Of a stretch of DNA of 25,371 bases, positions 1,165 to 23,535 are shown in pieces. Source of the DNA: an uncultured virus (IMG/VR IMGVR_UViG_651053001_000005) (Duplodnaviria > Heunggongvirae > Uroviricota > Caudoviricetes); the IMG/VR virus record IMGVR_UViG_651053001_000005, positions 62,001 through 87,371 of that record. One strand, 5' to 3'. The notes beneath the pieces are model-generated. The model saw only the letters and a list, made by a program, of their open reading frames with translations. It ran no database searches and was not told the DNA's origin. Each line of letters opens with the position of its first letter. Within the stretch, counting starts at the first letter, position 1. The translations under genes were made by a program, and so were the position numbers.

Positions 1165-2562
1165 TTATTTGTCCAGAATAATTTTTGCTTGTGAAAATTT
1201 TCGGTTTAAATTCCTGTTTTCTTTCATACTATTTAAAATGATTTCTTCATCCAATCCTATCTTTTTCAGGATTAAAAATGTTAATAGTCCATTCATTCTT
1301 AAGGAGGCGTAATATTTCTCAACTGCTCGATGGAAAACCTTAGTTTTGTTTGTTAGATCATAGTGAGTAAGATAGTTTCTAGTCTCAACAAGTCCAAAAA
1401 TAAAACTGTCCCTTTTTTTATTATTACCCGAAAGGAAGTTTTTTGTATCTGTTGATTGTTGATTAAATAACTCCTTTAGTCGCTTCATAAGATTAACTTC
1501 ATTAATATGCTTTAACTTATTTAAGAAAAATTGCTTATGGTCAACTGAAACATTAGAATTAATAAACTCTCTTACTTTTTCAGTTTCAAATGTTAGTTCT
1601 TGGTTAAATTCTAAGCTGGAGCAATATCTTCTGTGAAATATCTCTAAACACTGAATATTTTTAATGAATTTGGTTTCCACGAACTCTTTCTGATCTTTAC
1701 TGTTCATAAATAAACTAACTATTGTACTCAGCTTTTCTCTTTCTTGAAACCAGTTATTTAACAAAGTTTCATAATTGTGTCTTACCTTATTATAATCAAA
1801 CAAGAAATTTGTATTCTTCTGTTTAAGGGCTTCTCTGTGATGTTGAAAGTATTTATATTTCAATTGTTTTTTATCTTCTGTCACGTTTAATGTGATATTT
1901 ATATCGTAGTTAATGTTGTTCATTAGAATGTTTATAAGTCTAACCTGATGATTTACATTCTCATGAAACCATTTCAAATCTTTCCTTTCTGATGGGATTA
2001 TATTAAATCCACTAACATGCTCCATAGATACACACTGTCCAGATTTTTGATTCTTAATCTTTACCCCACTAGTTTCTTGTACTACAAAATCTTTGACTGT
2101 AACCTTGTTTATGTTTATTCTCTCATAATGTATTTCATGTTTTTCACCATTAGAGTCAAATATTTGAGTGAAGGCGCTCAAACCCATCCATTCTGTTAAA
2201 TTCCCAGTTGAAAACTCAGCAGAGTCAAATTTTTCTGGAAATGCCTCTGTGTAATCTCCTACTAAAAAGCTCCTAATTTCATAAACTGAAGTGGGTATTC
2301 CAGGTGATCTAAAGTTTGATTTTCCTATTGCAAGAACATCAAGTTTATACAATTCGCCATCTACTGATATTCCATTGATAACTTTTGGAGTGTCACCAAT
2401 ATCAATAAAGTCATTAACTAATGTACCCATTATCTCTAATGTGATTTCTTCTGGTTTATATATTAACGTACCTGGAACTTGATTTTCTTTATCTTTATCA
2501 ATCCACCAATACCCTTGTACAGAAAAAACATCAAAAATATCTTTATTTACTATGTTTTTCAT
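1165..2562 (-). CDS. ApeA-like protein (ApeA N-terminal domain plus C-terminal HEPN RNase); probable anti-phage defence
   Basis: 465 aa. N-terminal GYWW...VPGTLIY...ITLEIMG pattern typical of ApeA_NTD1. C-terminal HEPN with IQCLEIFHR helix and RxxxxH motif (ETRNYLTHYD). Confidence 0.8.
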   Translation of the reverse strand: MKNIVNKDIFDVFSVQGYWWIDKDKENQVPGTLIYKPEEITLEIMGTLVNDFIDIGDTPKVINGISVDGELYKLDVLAIGKSNFRSPGIPTSVYEIRSFLVGDYTEAFPEKFDSAEFSTGNLTEWMGLSAFTQIFDSNGEKHEIHYERININKVTVKDFVVQETSGVKIKNQKSGQCVSMEHVSGFNIIPSERKDLKWFHENVNHQVRLINILMNNINYDINITLNVTEDKKQLKYKYFQHHREALKQKNTNFLFDYNKVRHNYETLLNNWFQEREKLSTIVSLFMNSKDQKEFVETKFIKNIQCLEIFHRRYCSSLEFNQELTFETEKVREFINSNVSVDHKQFFLNKLKHINEVNLMKRLKELFNQQSTDTKNFLSGNNKKRDSFIFGLVETRNYLTHYDLTNKTKVFHRAVEKYYASLRMNGLLTFLILKKIGLDEEIILNSMKENRNLNRKFSQAKIILDK

Positions 2563-13508: not shown

Positions 13509-14429
13509 TTAAACCACCTCAATAATATTATTTTTATTCGTAATTTTTCTCATTTCTTTGCACCAGGATTCCACATGCCCGATTACAGAATCAAGATTGT
13601 TCATTATAATTTGATTGTCACTCATATCCCTAATGGCCTTTGCATACTTTACAGGCGCTAAACTACCTTTTAATACTTTTTCAATCTCCCAAACCATTTC
13701 AGAAAGCTCAGAAGTGGCCTCAACCTGCCTACCTAAATCATCCTGTTCTCTTGTTACAGCCTTTAATTTATTTGTTAGCTCCTCGTATTCTTTTACTTTC
13801 ACATCACTCCTTTCAAGTTGTTGCTCTAAGATCAATTTTTGTTTAGATATATTTTCATATTTTTTATTTTGATACTCTAATTCTTTTTTTAATGCGTCTA
13901 TTTGTTTGTAGTCAGTGTTATCAATGACTTTTTCAACAACTGTCTTCTTCTCCTTTTCTCGTTTTAATTTAGTTTCCAACAAACAATTATCCTCTTCAGC
14001 TTTCCTCAGCTTAGCTTCAAGCTCTTTGTATTCCTTTAGTGTTTTGACTTCACCATTTAGGACTGCTTCCTTAGCTTGTTTCTTTGGTTCGGTTGATTCT
14101 GATGAAGGTTTAGCTATTTCATATGTTAGAGATACTGGCAGGTCTTCGATTATTTTTTGGTCTTCGCAATTTGCGATGAGCTTAAATCTGTTGATTAATC
14201 TATAAACCAAGTCCTTTTTCAATCCTATTGAATTGCACCATCTTTCAAACAGTCCATTATACTGATTGTTTCCAGCTAACTTTTCTTGTGCTTCCTTTAG
14301 CTCTCTCCCCAGCTCTGTATAGGCCTTGCCAACAATCTCACGCATGTTAAATTCTTTTTGTTTAAGGAAATCAGCAGTTGATTGATCAACTAAATCATAT
14401 TTGAACTCTTTTGATAATTCATTTGTCAT
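13509..14429 (-). CDS. DUF3102-like DNA-binding and coiled-coil protein
   Basis: AYTELGRELKEAQEKLA...GLFERWCNSIGL...VYRLI pattern; long coiled coil; start ATG 14429. Confidence 0.7.
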   Translation of the reverse strand: MTNELSKEFKYDLVDQSTADFLKQKEFNMREIVGKAYTELGRELKEAQEKLAGNNQYNGLFERWCNSIGLKKDLVYRLINRFKLIANCEDQKIIEDLPVSLTYEIAKPSSESTEPKKQAKEAVLNGEVKTLKEYKELEAKLRKAEEDNCLLETKLKREKEKKTVVEKVIDNTDYKQIDALKKELEYQNKKYENISKQKLILEQQLERSDVKVKEYEELTNKLKAVTREQDDLGRQVEATSELSEMVWEIEKVLKGSLAPVKYAKAIRDMSDNQIIMNNLDSVIGHVESWCKEMRKITNKNNIIEVV

Positions 14430-14433
14430 GTCT

Positions 14434-15222
14434 TTACATCCTTTCCAAGTTACCATTTCGATCCATTTTTAGCTTTATATTCTTCAAAGGGTTATCCTCT
14501 TTTTTCACTTTTGTTGATTTGGAACCATCTTCATCAAGATCAATCAACTCGCTTGCAATAAGCTCTTGAAGCTTGTCTATTCTTTTCTTCTGGCTTTTTA
14601 CTTTGTTACTAAGTTTATTGATCTTGTCATCTTTATCAGCTAATAGTTTGTTTGTTCCAGTCTTTTCATGTTTCAAAGACAAAATTTCGTTTTTAAGATC
14701 AAAGATTTCTTTTGTTGAGGTTTCTGTCATGTTTTGCACAGATTGCTGCATATTAAAAATCGGCGTTAACAATTTACTCATCTCATGTAGAATTTGTATA
14801 TTGTTCGACTTCATCATTTCCTTAATCACATTTGTATTTGAAGGAGGCACAACAACTTCTTTTCTTACCTTAATGGCTGTATCTGAATTTTTAAGGATCA
14901 TTGCCAATCTTAAAGCTGCTCTTTTAGGAACGATATATAGCTTAATGAATTTCCCAGGCATATTATATTTATGCTTAAATCCTTCAAGCTCTAATCCTTC
15001 TAGTTTCTTCAGTCCGTCTTCAACCAAAACCTCATTATTTCTGTGGATGTATGTAGTTAATGTAGGTACTTTCATTCCGAAATACTCTGACAAGAATTTT
15101 ATTGAAGTATGTTTTTTGTCACCTAGCATCTTTAACTTTTTCACTTTGTCCAAGGCATCAATTCGATCCATGTACTGCTCTCTTTCACTTTCTTTGATTA
15201 AATATAGATTGGTATTCTTCAT
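14434..15222 (-). CDS. Putative phage DNA-binding (antirepressor-like N-terminus) coiled-coil protein
   Basis: ALDKVKKL...LSEYF...IHRNNEVLVEDG...KRAALRLAMILKNSDTAIKVR; RBS GAGGAG. Confidence 0.7.
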   Translation of the reverse strand: MKNTNLYLIKESEREQYMDRIDALDKVKKLKMLGDKKHTSIKFLSEYFGMKVPTLTTYIHRNNEVLVEDGLKKLEGLELEGFKHKYNMPGKFIKLYIVPKRAALRLAMILKNSDTAIKVRKEVVVPPSNTNVIKEMMKSNNIQILHEMSKLLTPIFNMQQSVQNMTETSTKEIFDLKNEILSLKHEKTGTNKLLADKDDKINKLSNKVKSQKKRIDKLQELIASELIDLDEDGSKSTKVKKEDNPLKNIKLKMDRNGNLERM

Positions 15223-17371: not shown

Positions 17372-17470
17372 AGTAACTAAAGGGGAATTAATCCCCTTTA
17401 GCGTGTTATCTGCGTATACGTTTGCGTTGTCTCTCTGGTCGGAGACGCTTGCGTGTACGCTTTTTCTTTT
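17372..17470 (+). ncRNA. SR6-like antisense antitoxin RNA (ends approximate)
   Basis: Plus-strand promoter TTTACA (17338) and TG-T-TATAAT (17357-17365); hairpin TAAAGGGGA-ATTAA-TCCCCTTTA; antisense to the yonT 3' end; ends in GCGTGTACGC plus T-run; about 100 nt. Confidence 0.7.
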
Positions 17471-17585
17471 TGCTTTCTTTATTCTTCATCAGGTTTTGAA
17501 TCTTCTCAGCTATCGTTAAACAGTTGATGATTAAAACCGTGATAGGAATAAGGAAAGCAATTGTTATACCCACTTTCTCAAGCAC
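17406..17585 (-). CDS. yonT: Type I toxin YonT, 59 aa
   Basis: GTG start with RBS GAAAGGAGGTG; MLEKVGITIAFLIPITVLIINCLTIAEKIQNL...KKKKRTRKRLRPERQRKRIRR (TM helix plus polybasic tail). Confidence 0.9.
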   Translation of the reverse strand: MLEKVGITIAFLIPITVLIINCLTIAEKIQNLMKNKESKKKKRTRKRLRPERQRKRIRR

Positions 17586-18497
17586 TATGTACACCTCCTT
17601 TCCTATAACTCTATTATAACACATTTTTCCTTCGAAGTCATTTTATTTTTACTCTTAAAATGGATTTTTTTAAATTATTTTGGCACTATTATTTATGGGT
17701 GTTTATAAGCTTTATGAGGCGTGTATGTGGATTGGATACCCAATGTACTATGATTCATTTAAAATTGATTCTAGGTGCATTAGAATGCTTCTGATGATGT
17801 GTGGTGAATGGAAACGGATAGAGATGATTAGGTAAGATTAAGGGTGGATGTAATGAGGGGATGAGAAGGAATATTATTAGAGTGAATATAAAATAGGTAT
17901 TCGGATTAAGATAAAAAATTGTATAGATAACACTTCGATTCATTCCCTTTCGTTATACACACGATTATTTTTAATGAATGGGTATTCACTTTTATATTGA
18001 CCACTTAATTATTTTTTCAAAAATAAATATTGTTTTTCATTTGAAATTGTGTTAGTTGTGCAAATTTATCAGCCAAATCATAAAAACCCTACATAACGTA
18101 TCTTATATAGGGAATTCAATACCAATATATAGGGGGTATATTAACATCTAAAGGCCAAAAAACAGGAACAAATGTACCCCTAGCACTTCCATTTCCACAC
18201 CCAACTTATTTTTTCACTTTCCCATTTTTCAGCCTATTTTCACATCGTAATCGCTATCGTAAAAGCCTATAATATCAATGTTTTTCCACCCCTCTTTCTC
18301 CCCTTTTTCATCAGACTTTCAACATATCGACCACTTTTCCTCTCTCCTGCCTACGTTTTACGATCACAAAACACCTATTACCCCTTTGACAGCTCTAAAA
18401 CATTGCTATATCAACTAGATAACCCTTTCCGATCTTCATTTACGATAAGCACTTTTTCAACTCACGATCACCAAGTAGGGTCATTAAAAATCAAAAT

Positions 18498-18523
18498 AAA
18501 AAAGCCACCTTAATAGGCAGCTT
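18498..18523 (-). terminator. Terminator after the tubulin-like gene
   Basis: Minus strand AAGCTGCCT-ATTA-AGGTGGCTT followed by T-run. Confidence 0.7.
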
Positions 18524-18533
18524 CCCTTTAAAA

Positions 18534-19646
18534 TTAGCGCTTTAGTCTCTTCAGTGCCTCCATATACGAGGTCTTTTTCGATTCCTTGTTCTCCAGTTTT
18601 TTCGGTTTAAATAAATCCTCTCTACGGCGATTCTTCGCTTTATAAACAGTTGTTTCTTTAACTTCAGTGTTTCCATTTTCAATTAGATCATCTAACTGCT
18701 TCATCCGTTCATTGATCCAGGTTAACCCGCTAAGAATCGTTATCGCCCTATTACCTTTATCATAATGTCCTTTAAATAAGTCTAGGGGCATCTTGTTCTC
18801 AAAGACATTAAACAGCTCATTATACGATATATGCTCCGTTAAGAACTCATGAACATCTAGGATAACTCCAGCTCTCATCACATTTGTAAACTCAACAGGA
18901 GTAAATATCGAATTGTTCCACGACTTCTGTATATCTTCCTGCAGCTTATCAAAATACTTGCCCTCATTTGTAAATTCATTGAGGTTTGTTTGGGCAATAA
19001 TCATGATTCCTGGTGTATCAAACAGCTGATTTAAATCCTTCCTGTCTAAGGTGCTGATCTTTGATCCTCTGTCCGTGTAATTGAGTAAGACTTCAATTAA
19101 ATTCAGGAACATTTTGTTTGTTTCCTTATATAGTCTGCTCTCAGAAATCTTCCCTTCATGTTTACTCAAAACCATTTGATTATCCAAAGGTAAAACACAT
19201 GTCTCTGGCATAGATAAGTCTTCAAGTAGCTCCAGTGAATTCATCTGGTTGACCAATACCTCATTGTTGTCAGGAAGGATTGGTACAGCAACTATTGTTT
19301 TATGTGTAAGACATTCGTTTAACAATTCTAATAATATAGGGGCTACCCCTGAACCGGTTCCACCAGCAGCAGAGAAAACTACGAAAATAACTTGTACTGA
19401 AGGCTTTTCCATTGTGTTCTTTATGAACTCAATAGAGGACTCCCAGTTATTTTTCATATGTTTCGCTGCTACGCTTCTGTCTTTACCCACTCCTTCTGTC
19501 CCAACCAAATGAAGCTTATCTTGAATATTGACCAATGAATTAAGGTCTGAAAGTGAATAATTTATTGCGACAGAATGAAATCCCCTCTTCATTGCTTCAT
19601 CTGCTATACTTCCACCGGCCTGACCTACTCCAATAAATCCAAACAT
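18534..19646 (-). CDS. Tubulin/FtsZ-family GTPase (TubZ/PhuZ-like), 370 aa
   Basis: GVGQAGGSI, GVGKDR, signature SAAGGTGSG, PLDN, T7-loop-like LDRKDL; basic C-terminal tail. Confidence 0.9.
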   Translation of the reverse strand: MFGFIGVGQAGGSIADEAMKRGFHSVAINYSLSDLNSLVNIQDKLHLVGTEGVGKDRSVAAKHMKNNWESSIEFIKNTMEKPSVQVIFVVFSAAGGTGSGVAPILLELLNECLTHKTIVAVPILPDNNEVLVNQMNSLELLEDLSMPETCVLPLDNQMVLSKHEGKISESRLYKETNKMFLNLIEVLLNYTDRGSKISTLDRKDLNQLFDTPGIMIIAQTNLNEFTNEGKYFDKLQEDIQKSWNNSIFTPVEFTNVMRAGVILDVHEFLTEHISYNELFNVFENKMPLDLFKGHYDKGNRAITILSGLTWINERMKQLDDLIENGNTEVKETTVYKAKNRRREDLFKPKKLENKESKKTSYMEALKRLKR

Positions 19647-19930
19647 TAAACCCTCTCCCCTTCTAACTGATATCTCAAAGCTTCTTGTCCAAATTGAGTA
19701 ATAAAAACTGTATGCTCTTTAGTGTTTTTAACTATATTAATAAACTGCAAGGCCTCTAGACGATCGATGCTCTTTCTAAAGGTAGCATCAGTCAACTGAG
19801 TTTTTTCTTGAATGGTTTTCTTTCTAATTGATTTAAACTTTAAATCTGCCCCTTCATCGCTCAATAAGCCTAGAATATACAAATCATTTCGAGTTAAATT
19901 ATCAATGACTGAATCAAAATAAGTATCCAT
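19646..19930 (-). CDS. Winged-helix DNA-binding protein (TubR-like adaptor), 94 aa
   Basis: Start ATG 19930 (RBS AAGGAGGGG); TQLTDATFRKSIDRLEALQFI...ITQFG wHTH; TAATG stop/start overlap with the tubulin gene. Confidence 0.75.
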   Translation of the reverse strand: MDTYFDSVIDNLTRNDLYILGLLSDEGADLKFKSIRKKTIQEKTQLTDATFRKSIDRLEALQFINIVKNTKEHTVFITQFGQEALRYQLEGERV

Positions 19931-19995
19931 GTAACCCCTCCTTAATATCTGATGATTTTGAAGTATCTTGGTTGATATACGATTATTATATTGTT

Positions 19996-20039
19996 TATTT
20001 GTATTTAAATGCAAATATTTTTGTATCTTAATGCAAATA
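19996..20039. repeat. Two 20-bp quasi-palindromic repeats at 22-bp period
   Basis: TTTGTATTTAAATGCAAATA (19998) and TTTGTATCTTAATGCAAATA (20020). Confidence 0.7.
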
Positions 20040-20108
20040 ATTACACTCTGCTTGTATGTAAACCAGTGATTTTATAAAATTTATTCAAACAGCAAAAGGA
20101 TGATTTAA

Positions 20109-20345
20109 ATGGAATATAGGGTTAAAAGTAAGTTGGATTCATTTCTAAGCAGCAAAGGTATCGAAAAAGGCTGGTTAGCAGAGCAAATAAAAGCTGAAAG
20201 AGCAAGTATATCTAGATGGTGTAAAAATGACAGCGAGGGATTTGCAACCGTCCTCCCTAGTACATACAATCTTTTATTAATGGCACATATTCTAAATTGT
20301 AAAGTTGACGATCTTTTTGAATTAATCGAAATTAAATCCAATTAA
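20109..20345 (+). CDS. XRE/Cro-type HTH regulator, 78 aa
   Basis: KGWLAEQIKAERASISRWC...PSTYNLLLMAHILNCKVDDLF; RBS AAAGGA. Confidence 0.85.
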   Translation: MEYRVKSKLDSFLSSKGIEKGWLAEQIKAERASISRWCKNDSEGFATVLPSTYNLLLMAHILNCKVDDLFELIEIKSN

Positions 20346-20360
20346 CTTTGGATTTTTATG

Positions 20361-20389
20361 TTTACAAGAGTAAAAATAAAATATATAAT
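20361..20389 (+). promoter_or_regulatory. sigmaA promoter of yonP-yonO with the 16-bp motif filling the spacer
   Basis: TTTACA-AGAGTAAAAATAAAATA-TATAAT. Confidence 0.8.
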
Positions 20390-20464
20390 AAAGACACAAC
20401 CACGTGAAGTGGTCTTTATTTTAATCATTTTAAGAGTAAAAATAAAATAGTATGGAGGTGTAAG

Positions 20465-20644: not shown

Positions 20645-20684
20645 GCACTTTCAGAGTAAAAATAAAATAAACGGAGGGGATTGA

Positions 20685-23535
20685 TTGAAAAGAAAAAAAG
20701 ACGGATTGTCTAAGCAAGTTCACATTTACAGTGTGGATACATCAGCATTTTATAATGACAAAGAAAATTTATTACATAATAAGATTTTAAAGTCTTATAG
20801 ATACAGAGATTATCTTAAGACATTAGACAATGTACATAATAAACATAAGAAATACATTTCACAAAGAATTACATACCTTAAAGAATGTCTCTATTCTGCA
20901 TTCGAAGAACATAATGACATAAGAACACTTCGAACTGACAGCTTAAGGGACAATAAAGTGATTTCTTTATTTGATTCAGTGTTGACCCGAACATTAGGGA
21001 TTAAAGAAAATACCCTTTCAGAGGAAATCATGGTTGTCCAGACTTATCATTTTGAAGTATTGAAGGACATTATTGATCAAGGATTTTTACATAACAATGA
21101 AAAATACGTTTATTTCACAAGCAGCGCCGGTCAAATTCGTACAAAGAAGTCATGTTTCATTAAAAAAAGCACCTACGATAAGTATCAGGATGCTTTGACA
21201 TGCGGCTTAAGTATTGAAAAGATCAACTCCCTTGGTGGTAGCAGCATTAACAAATGGAATAGCTACATGGCCTTATCTAACAGCGCCAGTAGCCCTTGGG
21301 AGATTGATATTGATAAAGCTATTGTAGTCAACGACTTAGAAACCGATGTGTCGAGTCTCGTTGACTACATTGATCGAGAATACGAGATCACTCGAAAAAC
21401 AATGAACATTCCCATTGAGCATACAGATGGCTGCGGAATGATACTCCCCACTCTAAGTCATAAAAGCTTCATGGTAAGGCTCCCGTGGGTAAAGGGTTTA
21501 TTAGTCCCTTTTGATTTTCGTAAATTTGCTGAGGAAAACAAAGCTTTTAAAGTAACTGATATATACGGCAAGGAATGGGACATAGTGAAAGATGATGTTC
21601 AAATTATCTTCACTAAAAGTCAGTTTAAAATGTGGAAGTATTATTCATCGTGGGAAGAATATCAATTCAATTATAAAAAATATGGATGCTTAGGGGCAAA
21701 ACTCAACGAAGAAGATCCTTCTGTTGAAGGCAAGCTCACTTATCAAATGCTCCAGACACTTACAGATATCTCTGATGAAGAATTAATTCAAATGAGCTCA
21801 AAGACTGTAAAAGAAATAACCACATTGGGCACTGATAAAGAGACCATGTTAAGAGTTCTTGGAGCTACGGAGAAAAAGAAACATCGGACAGCTCTTCAGG
21901 ACGCTTTACTTCTATATCCAGAACTTCTTAACGATGATCACACGAAAGAAATTATTAAAAATAAAAAGAAAAGCATGATCAAAGATGCCAAATCAGGAAA
22001 ATTGCTTGTGGATGGAGCTCGTTATACATACTTATGCCCTGATCTATATGCTTTCTGCGAAAAATTATTTCTGAACATCCAGAATCCAAAAGGACTGCTT
22101 TCAGGAAGTGAAGTCCATTGTTCTTTATATGATGAAGGGTATATTGATATCCTCCGCTCCCCTCACTTATATAGAGAGCATGGTGTTAGGTGGAACAAAA
22201 AAGATGAGAAATATGAAAAGTGGTTCATTACCCCAGGTGTTTACACCAGCATTCATGATCCAATATCTAAACTGCTGCAGTTCGACAATGACGGGGATAA
22301 GGCCTTAATTATTCCTGATGAGTTAATCGTCAATATTGCCAAGCGTAATATGGAAAACATCGTTCCGTTGTATTATGAAATGTCTGTAGCCCAGAAACAA
22401 GAGATTAATAGCAAGAACATCTATGAAGCACTAACTCTTGCTTATGGGATCAATATCGGGGAGTACAGCAACAACATCACTAAGATATGGAACAGTGACA
22501 ACATAAACCTGGACGTGATCAAATGGTTATGTATGGAAAATAACTTTACTATCGATTAAATTTTTAGTCGCGTCGCATAGCGATATGCGGATGAAAAGTC
22601 AGTGAACCTAGAAATCTAGGGTGTGCATTCAGCGAAAAGTAGCGATAGGAAATGATCGTCAATGAGTGTGCTAACAGGGGAATTCTAAGTCCTTATCGAT
22701 ACGATAACCCTGTGCCAAGCGTTTACATCATGCTGGGAAGCACTTGTAAATGAAGGTGCAACGACCATCCTTTATGGAGTAATAATAAGGTGAAATTCCT
22801 TATTATGAAGCGCTGACTATCTGTCTAGCACAGATGATGATATGGTCTATTCCCTAATAAAATATCGGGAAACCGAGGGTATCAAAGTTCGCAAAAACCT
22901 TATTCATGCCTACCCGACCTGATCATGTCGATGAAAAAATCAAAGACTACATAAAAAATAAAGTACCCCACTTCTTCATCAATGCAAAGGATAAAGAAGA
23001 ACATAGCGTTGAGTTAATTAATGAAAGCACAGTAAACAAGTTAGACTCCATTATCCCCTCTGACCGAATTAATTTTGCAGCTGTTGCAGGGAAGTTCGAT
23101 TATCGCTTCCTGCTCAAGAACAAAGAGATTAAGTTGGACGAGGCAATTATTAGTGAGTACAAACGATTAGACCAAAACAAGAAATGGCTCATGAATGATG
23201 AAGACATTAAGCCTGGACAAAAACTTTATGTTTATAAGGTTATCAAAGACAGATTGCTGAAGATACATGAAGACGAACAATATGTTGCTGATGTTCTGAT
23301 TAAGTATCTGTATAAAAAGAAGAGTAAGTTCAAATCGACACTGTGGGAATGTTTCGGTGCTTGTATATTAAATAATCTAACACACAACCTGAAAACACTA
23401 AGAGTTTGCAGTGATTGTAAAACGCTATTTAGGGCTAAAACAAGCAAGAAACTTTTCTGTGGGAAATGTACAGTTAAGAGGAATAAACAAAAAACAAAGG
23501 AACGTGTCATTCGATTTAGAAATCAAAATGTGTAA
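20685..23535 (+). CDS. yonO: Single-subunit two-barrel DNA-dependent RNA polymerase YonO; join(20685..22556,22888..23535), 839 aa after splicing
   Basis: TDGCG, LRSPH and catalytic FDNDGD motifs; exons join in frame as [19 protein letters not shown]-terminal CxxC...CxxC. Confidence 0.93.
22557..22887 (+). ncRNA. Group I self-splicing intron (331 nt, no homing endonuclease) in yonO
   Basis: Exon ends in U, intron ends in G. P1 CGAU/UA pairs with UAGUCG, giving a U-G pair at the splice site. AGTCAGTG/CGCTGACT (P3), ACAGGG/CCCTGT, P7 GACCA/TGGTC within ATGATATGGTCT, P8 ATCTGT/ACAGAT, P9 CGG-GAAA-CCG. Confidence 0.93.

Follow-up and report, generated by a model that had tools for sequence, protein, structure and literature searches.

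A tubRZ cassette in an SPbeta-like arbitrium phage, best explained as a TubZRC-class DNA-positioning module

Identity of the tubRZ cassette

In the characterized type III partition systems, the adaptor protein TubR attaches to DNA ahead of its own gene; its binding represses the operon and assembles the complex that filaments of the tubulin-family GTPase TubZ carry (PMC6009700, PMC7762940). We analyzed a 25,371-nt stretch of DNA (referred to here as the window) that forms the final 25.4 kb of an 87,371-bp IMG/VR provirus record (IMGVR_UViG_651053001_000005) and that carries genes for both of these proteins, tubR and tubZ, within a single compact cassette. To judge from its gene content, the element that hosts the cassette is an SPbeta-like phage with an arbitrium system. 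SPbeta-like phages serve as a model for arbitrium signaling and for prophages as developmental switches, and they are treated as strictly integrative. The best explanation of the tubRZ cassette is that it is a working type III (TubZRC-class) DNA-positioning module belonging to the phage, and its most likely role would be the movement or partitioning of the phage's own DNA while that DNA is extrachromosomal, either in a plasmid-like state or during lytic growth.

The tubZ gene (18534 to 19646, minus strand) encodes a predicted 370-aa GTPase of the tubulin/FtsZ family (Pfam Tubulin PF00091; E value, 2.9e-20), with a structured core at residues 1 to 328, a disordered linker at residues 336 to 360, and a conserved short C-terminal helix or tail. 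When a TubZ family profile was compared with solved structures, the best match, spanning the full length, was to the TubZ of Clostridium phage c-st (PDB 4xcq; E value, 7.6e-46; 159.9 bits). CetZ (2.7e-30; 108.7 bits) and RepX (2.6e-20; 75.8 bits) ranked lower, FtsZ structures scored between 1e-16 and 1e-19 (at most 71 bits), and pBtoxis TubZ scored 3e-16. An AlphaFold (AF2) model of the protein (predicted local distance difference test [pLDDT] score, 86.2) likewise retrieved c-st TubZ 4xcq first in Foldseek (template modeling [TM] score, 0.83 on the target), followed by CetZ and then by the TubZ structures of Bacillus cereus and Bacillus thuringiensis. In a tree of 54 rows, built by a quick search with Escherichia coli FtsZ as the outgroup and containing one FtsZ, one PhuZ, and no CetZ, the window TubZ and the TubZ of Priestia megaterium plasmid pBM400 belonged to the same 27-row clade (Shimodaira-Hasegawa-like approximate likelihood ratio test [SH-aLRT] support, 100). 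The c-st TubZ fell in a neighboring 16-row clade and pBtoxis TubZ fell outside, and long branches led to both of these as well as to phiKZ PhuZ and FtsZ.

The nucleotide-binding motifs GVGQAGG and AGGTGSG (the G-box) line up with the corresponding motifs (T1 and T4) of FtsZ and TubZ. Two acidic residues of the T7 loop, D201 and D204, at positions required in this superfamily for GTP hydrolysis coupled to polymerization, are invariant in 23 TubZ family members and align with the TYDPSDL stretch of pBtoxis TubZ and with D209 and D212 of E. coli FtsZ. The terminal peptide is conserved in the family alignment and follows a low-confidence linker in the model; this layout is the one expected for a partner-engaging tail, and the peptide is a candidate TubR-DNA-binding tail. 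By all of these comparisons, the 370-aa GTPase is a TubZ, nearer to the characterized TubZ proteins than to FtsZ, CetZ, or PhuZ.

PhuZ, the phage tubulin of nucleus-forming jumbo phages (phiKZ gp39), positions phage DNA and was considered separately. The window TubZ matched the PhuZ entry of PHROG at 9.4e-10 and an unnamed PHROG at 9.5e-16, PhuZ gave no tblastn match to the window TubZ at an E value of 1e-3, and its branch in the tree was very long and unreliable. Assignment of the window protein to PhuZ was ruled out by the accompanying adaptor gene, by the temperate nature of the host phage, and by a sequence match weaker than that to TubZ.

The adaptor gene, tubR (19646 to 19930, minus strand), is a 285-nt coding sequence (CDS) for a predicted 94-aa winged-helix protein, and its TAA stop codon overlaps the tubZ start as TAATG. 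Mechanical open reading frame (ORF) calling begins tubR at a TTG at 20014. The true start is almost certainly the ATG at 19930, because a ribosome-binding site (AAGGAGGGG) lies just upstream of that codon, because the alignment with PDB 4ASN begins at residue 1, and because the identical 285-nt CDS is annotated in plaBV1, a 97.6%-related circular element described below. Searched alone with phmmer, the protein matched the TubR structure 4asn_A at 3.3e-17 over residues 1 to 89. A profile of 24 family members matched 4asn at 4.9e-27, the TubR structure 6tey at 5.7e-18, and the pBtoxis TubR entries (4aso and 3m8e) at about 2e-3. The translated tubR of pBM400 scored 1.4e-31 against the same profile, which supports the identification of 4ASN as the pBM400 protein. 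On the strength of these matches, the 94-aa winged-helix protein is a clear TubR homologue. A first-pass annotation of the window, made from the letters and their ORFs, had described a winged helix-turn-helix (wHTH) gene translationally coupled to the gene for a tubulin-family GTPase; the TAATG overlap and the matches to 4ASN and PF00091 bear out this description, and the phylogeny against TubZ, PhuZ, and FtsZ that it had proposed as a check placed the protein with pBM400 in the TubZ clade.

Blastn comparison with phage phi3T showed homology that ends at 18365 and restarts at 20326; because of these breaks, we treat the intervening ~2 kb (18366 to 20325) as the unit, a cassette made up of an XRE-family gene, a candidate operator, tubR, tubZ, and a putative terminator. 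The last of these is a terminator-like hairpin of 13 pairs followed by TTTT (18498 to 18527, minus strand), which lies 7 nt past the tubZ stop and was found by a consensus-level pattern scan. The slot is occupied by three small genes (62 to 64) in phi3T and by yonR and yonS in SPbeta, and the cassette is flanked by yonT/SR6 on one side and by yonP/yonO on the other. The first-pass annotation had placed the module, with its divergent regulator, at the yonS-yonR position of SPbeta; the slot was correctly named, but SPbeta yonR is codirectional with yonS rather than divergent from it. Megablast matched 25 named SPbeta-like phages to the window at 80 to 95% identity over up to 45% of its length. 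YonO begins at 20685 (PHROG E value, 1.8e-281), and the description of the phage as arbitrium controlled agrees with the presence in the record of AimR (6.3e-100) and of MrpR domains (6.3e-25 and 4.1e-16). Elsewhere in the record are genes for a YopP-like tyrosine recombinase and for a large set of replication proteins, among them Pol III alpha, a DnaB-like helicase, and a RecJ-like protein. The tubulin gene was absent from all of the named SPbeta-like phages, and its tblastn matches were confined to phage G and c-st-type phages.

Candidate sites, distribution, and expression

The intergenic region between tubR and the XRE gene is 178 bp long. Within it, we read a putative sigma A-type tubRZ promoter at 19985 to 20014 (minus strand), with a -35 box (TTGCAT) at 20014 to 20009, an 18-nt spacer, and a -10 box (TATAAT) at 19990 to 19985; a consensus promoter scan returned only a weaker overlapping variant, TTTAAA-16-AATAAT. 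Transcription from the putative promoter is predicted to begin near 19978 to 19983. Two 22-bp tandem units at 19998 to 20041 (Tandem Repeats Finder [TRF] period, 22; 1.9 copies; score, 70) form a candidate operator or minimal tubC. Each unit carries an 18-bp near-palindrome, TTTGCATnnAnATRCAAA (at 20020 to 20037 and at 19998 to 20015), and the promoter-proximal unit overlaps the putative promoter. No further copies of this near-palindrome were found elsewhere in the 87-kb record. The TTTGCAT sequence may resemble the -35 boxes of forespore sigma factors, a likeness from which we claim nothing. A possible third, compressed site (TTTACATACAAG) was read at 20051 to 20062 (minus strand); 11 of its 12 columns are invariant across the window and 21 close loci (22 sequences), with TTAACATACAAG at locus L067, a pattern that hints only weakly at a functional site. 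The phased repeats that the first-pass annotation had reported upstream of the module are thus present, but there are two of them and no long phased array.

The divergent XRE gene that it had also reported lies at 20109 to 20345 (plus strand) and encodes a predicted 78-aa Cro/C1-type helix-turn-helix (HTH) protein (Pfam HTH_26; E value, 6.1e-6). A homologue occupies the same divergent position at the pumilus-type loci (43 to 45% identity) and at the loci of a variant allele group (41%). By this comparison, the XRE gene belongs to the cassette and covaries with it. At the three variant loci (L066, L079, and L080), TubZ is still 94 to 95% identical to the window TubZ, TubR is strongly diverged (84 versus 183 bits), the XRE gene is diverged, and another palindrome, TGTAATCATTAATGATTACA, takes the place of the two sites. 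Because TubR, the XRE gene, and the palindrome switch together while TubZ stays, the DNA-recognition half of the cassette has been exchanged as a module. An assignment of the sites to TubR by allele covariation was uninformative, since all three components change jointly at these loci.

A tubulin ORF was recovered at 79 of 80 related IMG/VR loci. At 72 of these 79 loci, an ORF of 70 to 155 aa ends within -20 to +30 nt of the tubZ start, and 49 of the 72 abutting ORFs match the window TubR with E values below 1e-4; from these counts, the pairing of tubR with tubZ is not due to chance. In comparisons of the window with close relatives, the ratio of nonsynonymous to synonymous substitution rates (dN/dS) was 0.039 to 0.084 for tubZ (10 pairs) and 0.056 to 0.113 for tubR (8 pairs), with dS values of 0.19 to 0.42 for both genes. 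Both genes are under strong purifying selection.

The 74 homologues that we collected come from Bacillus, Metabacillus, Cytobacillus, Priestia, Brevibacillus, and other genera, and relatives are found on true plasmids, namely, 18 from Priestia with pBM400 among them, and on the plasmid-prophage c-st. (A genome-collection scan, in which the matches listed were mostly from distant Lachnospiraceae, was not used for counts.) We also surveyed yonO-bearing loci, taking the best 79 of 235 IMG/VR matches. Twenty-seven of the 79 carry tubR and tubZ, always both, just upstream of and divergent from yonO, and their YonO proteins are 54 to 98% identical to that of the window. Carriage varied with YonO identity: all loci at 94 to 98% carry tubRZ, as do five of five at 72% and three loci at 54 to 61%, whereas none of those at 83 to 88% (the SPbeta/phi3T type) does. 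We read this distribution as a long-standing association between tubRZ and the phage supergroup, with loss or replacement in the B. subtilis models; a possible alternative is that tubRZ has been exchanged repeatedly at a hot spot.

With up to 2 mismatches allowed, a 16-nt motif, AGAGTAAAAATAAAAT, is present in 32 copies in the 87-kb record; all except two share the strand of the neighboring genes, and many copies lie just ahead of a ribosome-binding site or promoter-like sequence. The motif probably serves as a promoter or leader element specific to the phage; no name for it was found in the SPbeta paper by Kohm et al. (bioRxiv 10.1101/2021.11.22.469490). Within the window, copies are located at 20367 to 20382, 20433 to 20448, and 20653 to 20668 (plus strand) and at 17640 to 17655 (minus strand), and none lies in the tubR-XRE intergenic region at the same tolerance. 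This absence fits the view that tubRZ is a self-contained, autonomously regulated unit. Assembled contigs covered the tubRZ operon in four RNA libraries. They include a 1,230-nt contig (18537 to 19766; library X2), one end of which lies near the terminator-like hairpin, and a 1,798-nt contig (18185 to 19983; library X1), the end of which lies a few bases downstream of the putative -10 box and offers a hint only as to the position of the promoter. Long contigs of 16 to 23 kb in run X9 suggest DNA or a fully active phage.

The surroundings of the cassette can be summarized as follows. The gap of about 900 bp between tubZ and yonT (17625 to 18533) holds no convincing ORF and is 79% identical to phi3T up to position 18365. 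Beyond it are a yonT-like type I toxin ORF (17406 to 17624, minus strand) and the SR6 antitoxin RNA (17374 to 17471, plus strand; Rfam RF02892, 91.7 bits). On the other side, the segment between the XRE gene and the yonP-like gene (20346 to 20464) is the counterpart of the yonR-yonP interval and contains a bidirectional hairpin (20398 to 20414). The yonR-yonP interval is where Kohm et al. locate the genome opening (pac) point of SPbeta-like phages (bioRxiv 10.1101/2021.11.22.469490), and the cassette therefore adjoins the probable packaging start. The yonO gene appears to be split by a group I intron (22547 to 22869) between ORFs at 20685 to 22559 and 22906 to 23535; the full Rfam model RF00028 matched with 38.4 bits (E value, 3.9e-8), short of the gathering score of 50. 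In RNA-library contigs from two runs, 22557 is connected directly to 22891, with the 333 nt between them missing, and an intronless relative is an alternative source of these contigs. An ApeA-like HEPN protein is encoded at 1165 to 2559 (minus strand; PF18862, 2.4e-33; PF18739, 1.8e-19), and a Gad1 anti-Gabija protein (7.7e-150) is encoded elsewhere in the record (G000 44903 to 45793, minus strand).

Proposed role and alternative explanations

By homology to the characterized systems, we propose that TubR dimers would bind the near-palindromic sites over the tubRZ promoter and that bound TubR would both repress the operon and mark the phage DNA. TubZ with GTP would form dynamic filaments, and its conserved C-terminal tail would couple the filament to the TubR-DNA complex. 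An adaptor-motor pair of this kind is suggested because TubR and TubZ are strictly paired, at 27 of 27 tubRZ-carrying yonO loci and at 72 of 79 tubZ loci. The module would act only on the free-circle genome, a form that exists once the phage has infected or excised and for as long as the serine recombinase has not integrated it, if it integrates at all. DNA binding at these particular sites, TubZ polymerization, coupling through the tail, and the stage of the life cycle involved are all drawn from this comparison. As to the outcome, our tentative preference, held at somewhat less than even odds, is that the module gives the SPbeta-like phage a heritable plasmid-like state, in which the circle would be partitioned to both daughter cells or moved toward a pole.

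Two SPbeta-like circular "plasmids" that bear tubRZ are relevant here, namely, plaBV1 of B. velezensis HMB26553 (NZ_CP097468.1; 122,487 bp; TubZ 97.6% identical to that of the window) and an element of B. pumilus FUA2116 (124,561 bp; TubZ 52% identical). The HMB26553 genome paper gives plaBV1 simply as a plasmid (PMC10177454). In plaBV1, a 695-aa recombinase frame (63625 to 65709) reads through position 65308, which is exactly where three integrated relatives (G004, G014, and G017) diverge from it. Because these relatives stop matching at that position, within an open recombinase frame, plaBV1 is the circular form, with an unrecombined attP, of a phage type found integrated in other genomes. 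Within the serine recombinase gene, attP falls in the 3' portion, and the product is 695 aa long in the circle and 565 to 574 aa long in the integrated forms, an arrangement resembling that described for phage Goe14 by Kohm et al. (bioRxiv 10.1101/2021.11.22.469490). A large serine recombinase gene is located less than 3 kb from the record end in seven records. At the yonO position, plaBV1 has a CoiA-family gene and a gene for a 923-aa hypothetical protein (locus L134 6664 to 10961), and tblastn at an E value of 1e-20 found no YonO in this element. Dragos et al. reported extrachromosomal SPbeta-like DNA in several genomes and raised the idea of a carrier state, and they do not mention tubulin (bioRxiv 10.1101/2020.05.06.055103). 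The first-pass annotation had offered four possibilities for the function: an episomal or carrier state, delivery during sporulation, positioning of lytic DNA, and interference with FtsZ. The two circular relatives are suggestive support for the episomal idea, alongside which there is also a circular record that lacks tubRZ.

That record is one of several points that weigh against a partition module serving a plasmid-like state. It is an SPbeta-like circular "plasmid" of B. subtilis SH1, and since it is without tubRZ, deposition as a plasmid is independent of the cassette. PLSDB yielded only three SPbeta-like plasmid records, even with a second marker, and the presence of tubRZ in two of the three is too small a sample for an association; the plasmid records may represent excised or replicating phage DNA in culture. 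Most carriers are integrated: among 41 tubZ-family IMG/VR records, 30 are classed as provirus, 10 as linear, and 1 as having terminal repeats. These figures agree with the earlier description of an integrating phage, and they count against the reading because a partition system would be idle while the phage is integrated. TubY, the third component of type III systems, is a MerR-like HTH protein that has a coiled coil and an amphipathic, lysine-rich tail. It was absent in tblastn searches with the c-st and pBtoxis TubY proteins (E value, 1e-3) of the 87-kb record and 80 IMG/VR loci, and likewise of the plaBV1, B. pumilus, pBM400, and phage G loci; the neighboring position is taken by the 78-aa Cro/C1-type HTH gene instead. 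The DNA sites are also few. The tubC regions of the known systems measure about 130 bp in pBtoxis and about 250 bp in pBsph; that of c-st exceeds 350 bp and contains iterons of two kinds (PMC6009700). Set against such multirepeat regions, often divided into separate blocks, are only two, perhaps three, candidate sites here. Moreover, the two sites show no significant excess of conservation over the remainder of an intergenic region that is itself well conserved (2 of 36 site columns variable compared to 22 of 142 columns outside, in 22 near relatives; Fisher P = 0.17), and palindromic sites would suit the XRE protein equally well. Finally, tubZ is frameshifted at 2 of the 28 closest loci, and the RNA data, being assembled contigs, do not tell where transcripts end, from which strand or at what level they are made, or whether the cells were lysogenic or lytic, and they could include DNA carry-over.

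A wider version of the plasmid-like reading, which we regard as possible but doubtful, is that the SPbeta-like phages of the B. velezensis/amyloliquefaciens and B. pumilus groups are facultative phage-plasmids that, after arbitrium-controlled lysogeny, either integrate or persist as a low-copy circle partitioned by TubRZ. If this were so, the circle might be driven to the cell pole and so into the forespore; the block of tubRZ, ParB-like, UvrD, and YonO genes shared with c-st would be an inherited trait of a lifestyle-switching lineage; and the model phages SPbeta and phi3T would have lost that block.

Nearly as likely as the heritable plasmid-like state, and still short of probable in its own right, is a role in lytic growth only, in which TubRZ would position or transport replicating phage DNA in the manner of AlpAC or PhuZ and no plasmid state would be inherited. 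Most carriers are, after all, integrated prophages with a full arbitrium/MrpR lysogeny system, and the SH1 genome is recorded as a circle even though it has no tubRZ. There is also a precedent in prophage CGP3, whose partition-like pair AlpA-AlpC belongs to an integrated prophage and acts on viral DNA replication and transport (PMC4446434, PMC5539076), and about 400 bp separate the cassette from the yonR-yonP interval, to which the pac point has been assigned (bioRxiv 10.1101/2021.11.22.469490). A TubR-TubZ pair, gp137 and gp138, is found in a lytic phage as well. In this giant Bacillus phage, G, the TubR homologue gp137 (5.5e-22 against the TubR profile; L148 2689 to 4116) is encoded directly upstream of the FtsZ-like gp138. 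Other observations count against an exclusively lytic function: the operon has its own putative sigma A-like promoter and operator and lacks AGAGTAAAAATAAAAT, its closest characterized relatives (pBM400 and c-st) are maintenance systems of elements in the plasmid state, and SPbeta and phi3T grow lytically without tubRZ.

Rather improbable, by comparison, is the suggestion that TubZ interferes with or hijacks host division, for instance through an FtsZ-peptide-like tail, and that TubR and the XRE protein are regulators only. The tail consensus ..S..DIL.KYKR does align with the C-terminal peptide of E. coli FtsZ (MAFFT), the palindromic sites resemble ordinary operators, and some Clostridia have chromosomal TubZ with TubY and without TubR, a combination thought to be nonsegregating (PMC7762940). 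The resemblance of the tails is short and low in information, however, and the protein belongs to the TubZ clade and not to the FtsZ clade. Strict coinheritance with TubR at all 27 of the yonO loci, together with the small abutting ORF at 72 of the 79 tubZ loci, also argues against it.

We give still less credence to the idea that the region is part of a plasmid-type replicon that supports autonomous theta replication rather than partition. The names and uses of related genes speak for it, in that "the replicon gene" is the term given to tubZ in the pBsph-like plasmid p1593 (PMC13239906), the TubZ entry PDB 4ei7 is titled "plasmid replication protein RepX," and the tubZ/repX regions of plasmids of the pBtoxis and pBsph types have served as replicons. 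This phage has a full replication module of its own (Pol III alpha, DnaB-like helicase, and RecJ-like protein), however, and the cassette is only about 2 kb long, with a 178-bp intergenic region and no iteron array. The least credible explanation, that the cassette is an inert plasmid-derived remnant in a recombination hot spot, can appeal to the variability of the slot among SPbeta-like phages and to the two frameshifted copies among the 28 closest, but it is contradicted by dN/dS values of 0.04 to 0.11 at dS values of 0.19 to 0.42 for both genes, by the conservation of the catalytic residues and the tail, and by the retention of the cassette in lineages whose YonO is only 54 to 72% identical.

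We found no published account of tubRZ in SPbeta-like phages, and the main texts of two comparative SPbeta papers do not contain the words "tubulin," "FtsZ," or "partition." A conserved and selected tubulin partition system in many SPbeta relatives would imply a stage at which free phage DNA is moved or inherited. The laboratory models SPbeta and phi3T cannot show such a stage, because both are without the cassette.

Comparison with known systems

The AlpC protein of Corynebacterium prophage CGP3 resembles TubZ in that a filament and a DNA-binding adaptor are encoded in an integrated prophage, but AlpC is actin-like rather than tubulin-like, so that the parallel is one of analogy, with no homology. 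PhuZ has no TubR partner, whereas an adaptor gene is present here and the phage is temperate and about 125 kb long. The TubZRC systems of pBtoxis and of pXO1-like plasmids, from the B. cereus group, follow the same logic as the window locus, with a gene for a wHTH adaptor followed by the tubulin GTPase gene and with an HTH regulator gene close by. The relation to pBtoxis is a distant one, as its TubZ lies outside the clade and its TubR matches at only about 2e-3; in addition, pBtoxis TubZ is 484 aa long, with N- and C-terminal extensions, and the regulator there is a MerR-type TubY.

Among characterized systems, pBM400 is much closer. Its TubZ is 42% identical by tblastn and belongs to the same strongly supported clade, its tubR and tubZ follow each other directly in that order, their frames overlapping or abutting, and, as at the phage locus, no TubY of the c-st or pBtoxis type is found nearby. 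The two differ in their carriers, since pBM400 is a 53.9-kb plasmid and the cassette described here belongs to a prophage of roughly 125 kb with arbitrium and, in its relatives, a serine recombinase-type integrase. They also differ upstream of tubR, where pBM400 has about 640 bp and a codirectional gene for a 326-aa HTH protein and the phage has 178 bp and the divergent gene for the 78-aa XRE protein; a search for repeats upstream of pBM400 tubR gave no clear array for comparison.

The cassette thus departs from the canonical type III systems, as far as its sequence can tell, in three respects: no TubY was found, there are two or perhaps three sites, and the host element is integrative. It would represent a type III system of compact form, one that does without TubY and has two sites and one small, divergently transcribed HTH gene, and as such it would be a convenient minimal system in which to study how TubZ filaments engage DNA.

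Clostridium phage c-st invites comparison as well. It too carries a phage-borne type III system and provides the best solved-structure match for the window TubZ, although the two TubZ proteins are only about 25% identical. It lives as a plasmid, whereas most of the carriers considered here are integrated, and it encodes TubY directly downstream of tubZ, whereas none was found at the locus described here. A 315-aa protein encoded in the window at 13509 to 14456 (minus strand), which has no Pfam match at 1e-5, shares 42% identity over 139 aa with c-st CST185, for which the annotation is putative ParB. The two phages share a gene order consisting of tubR, tubZ, this ParB-like gene, one further gene, and a UvrD helicase gene (54% identity), with a YonO homologue nearby. 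This synteny ties together two groups of phages that are usually discussed apart.

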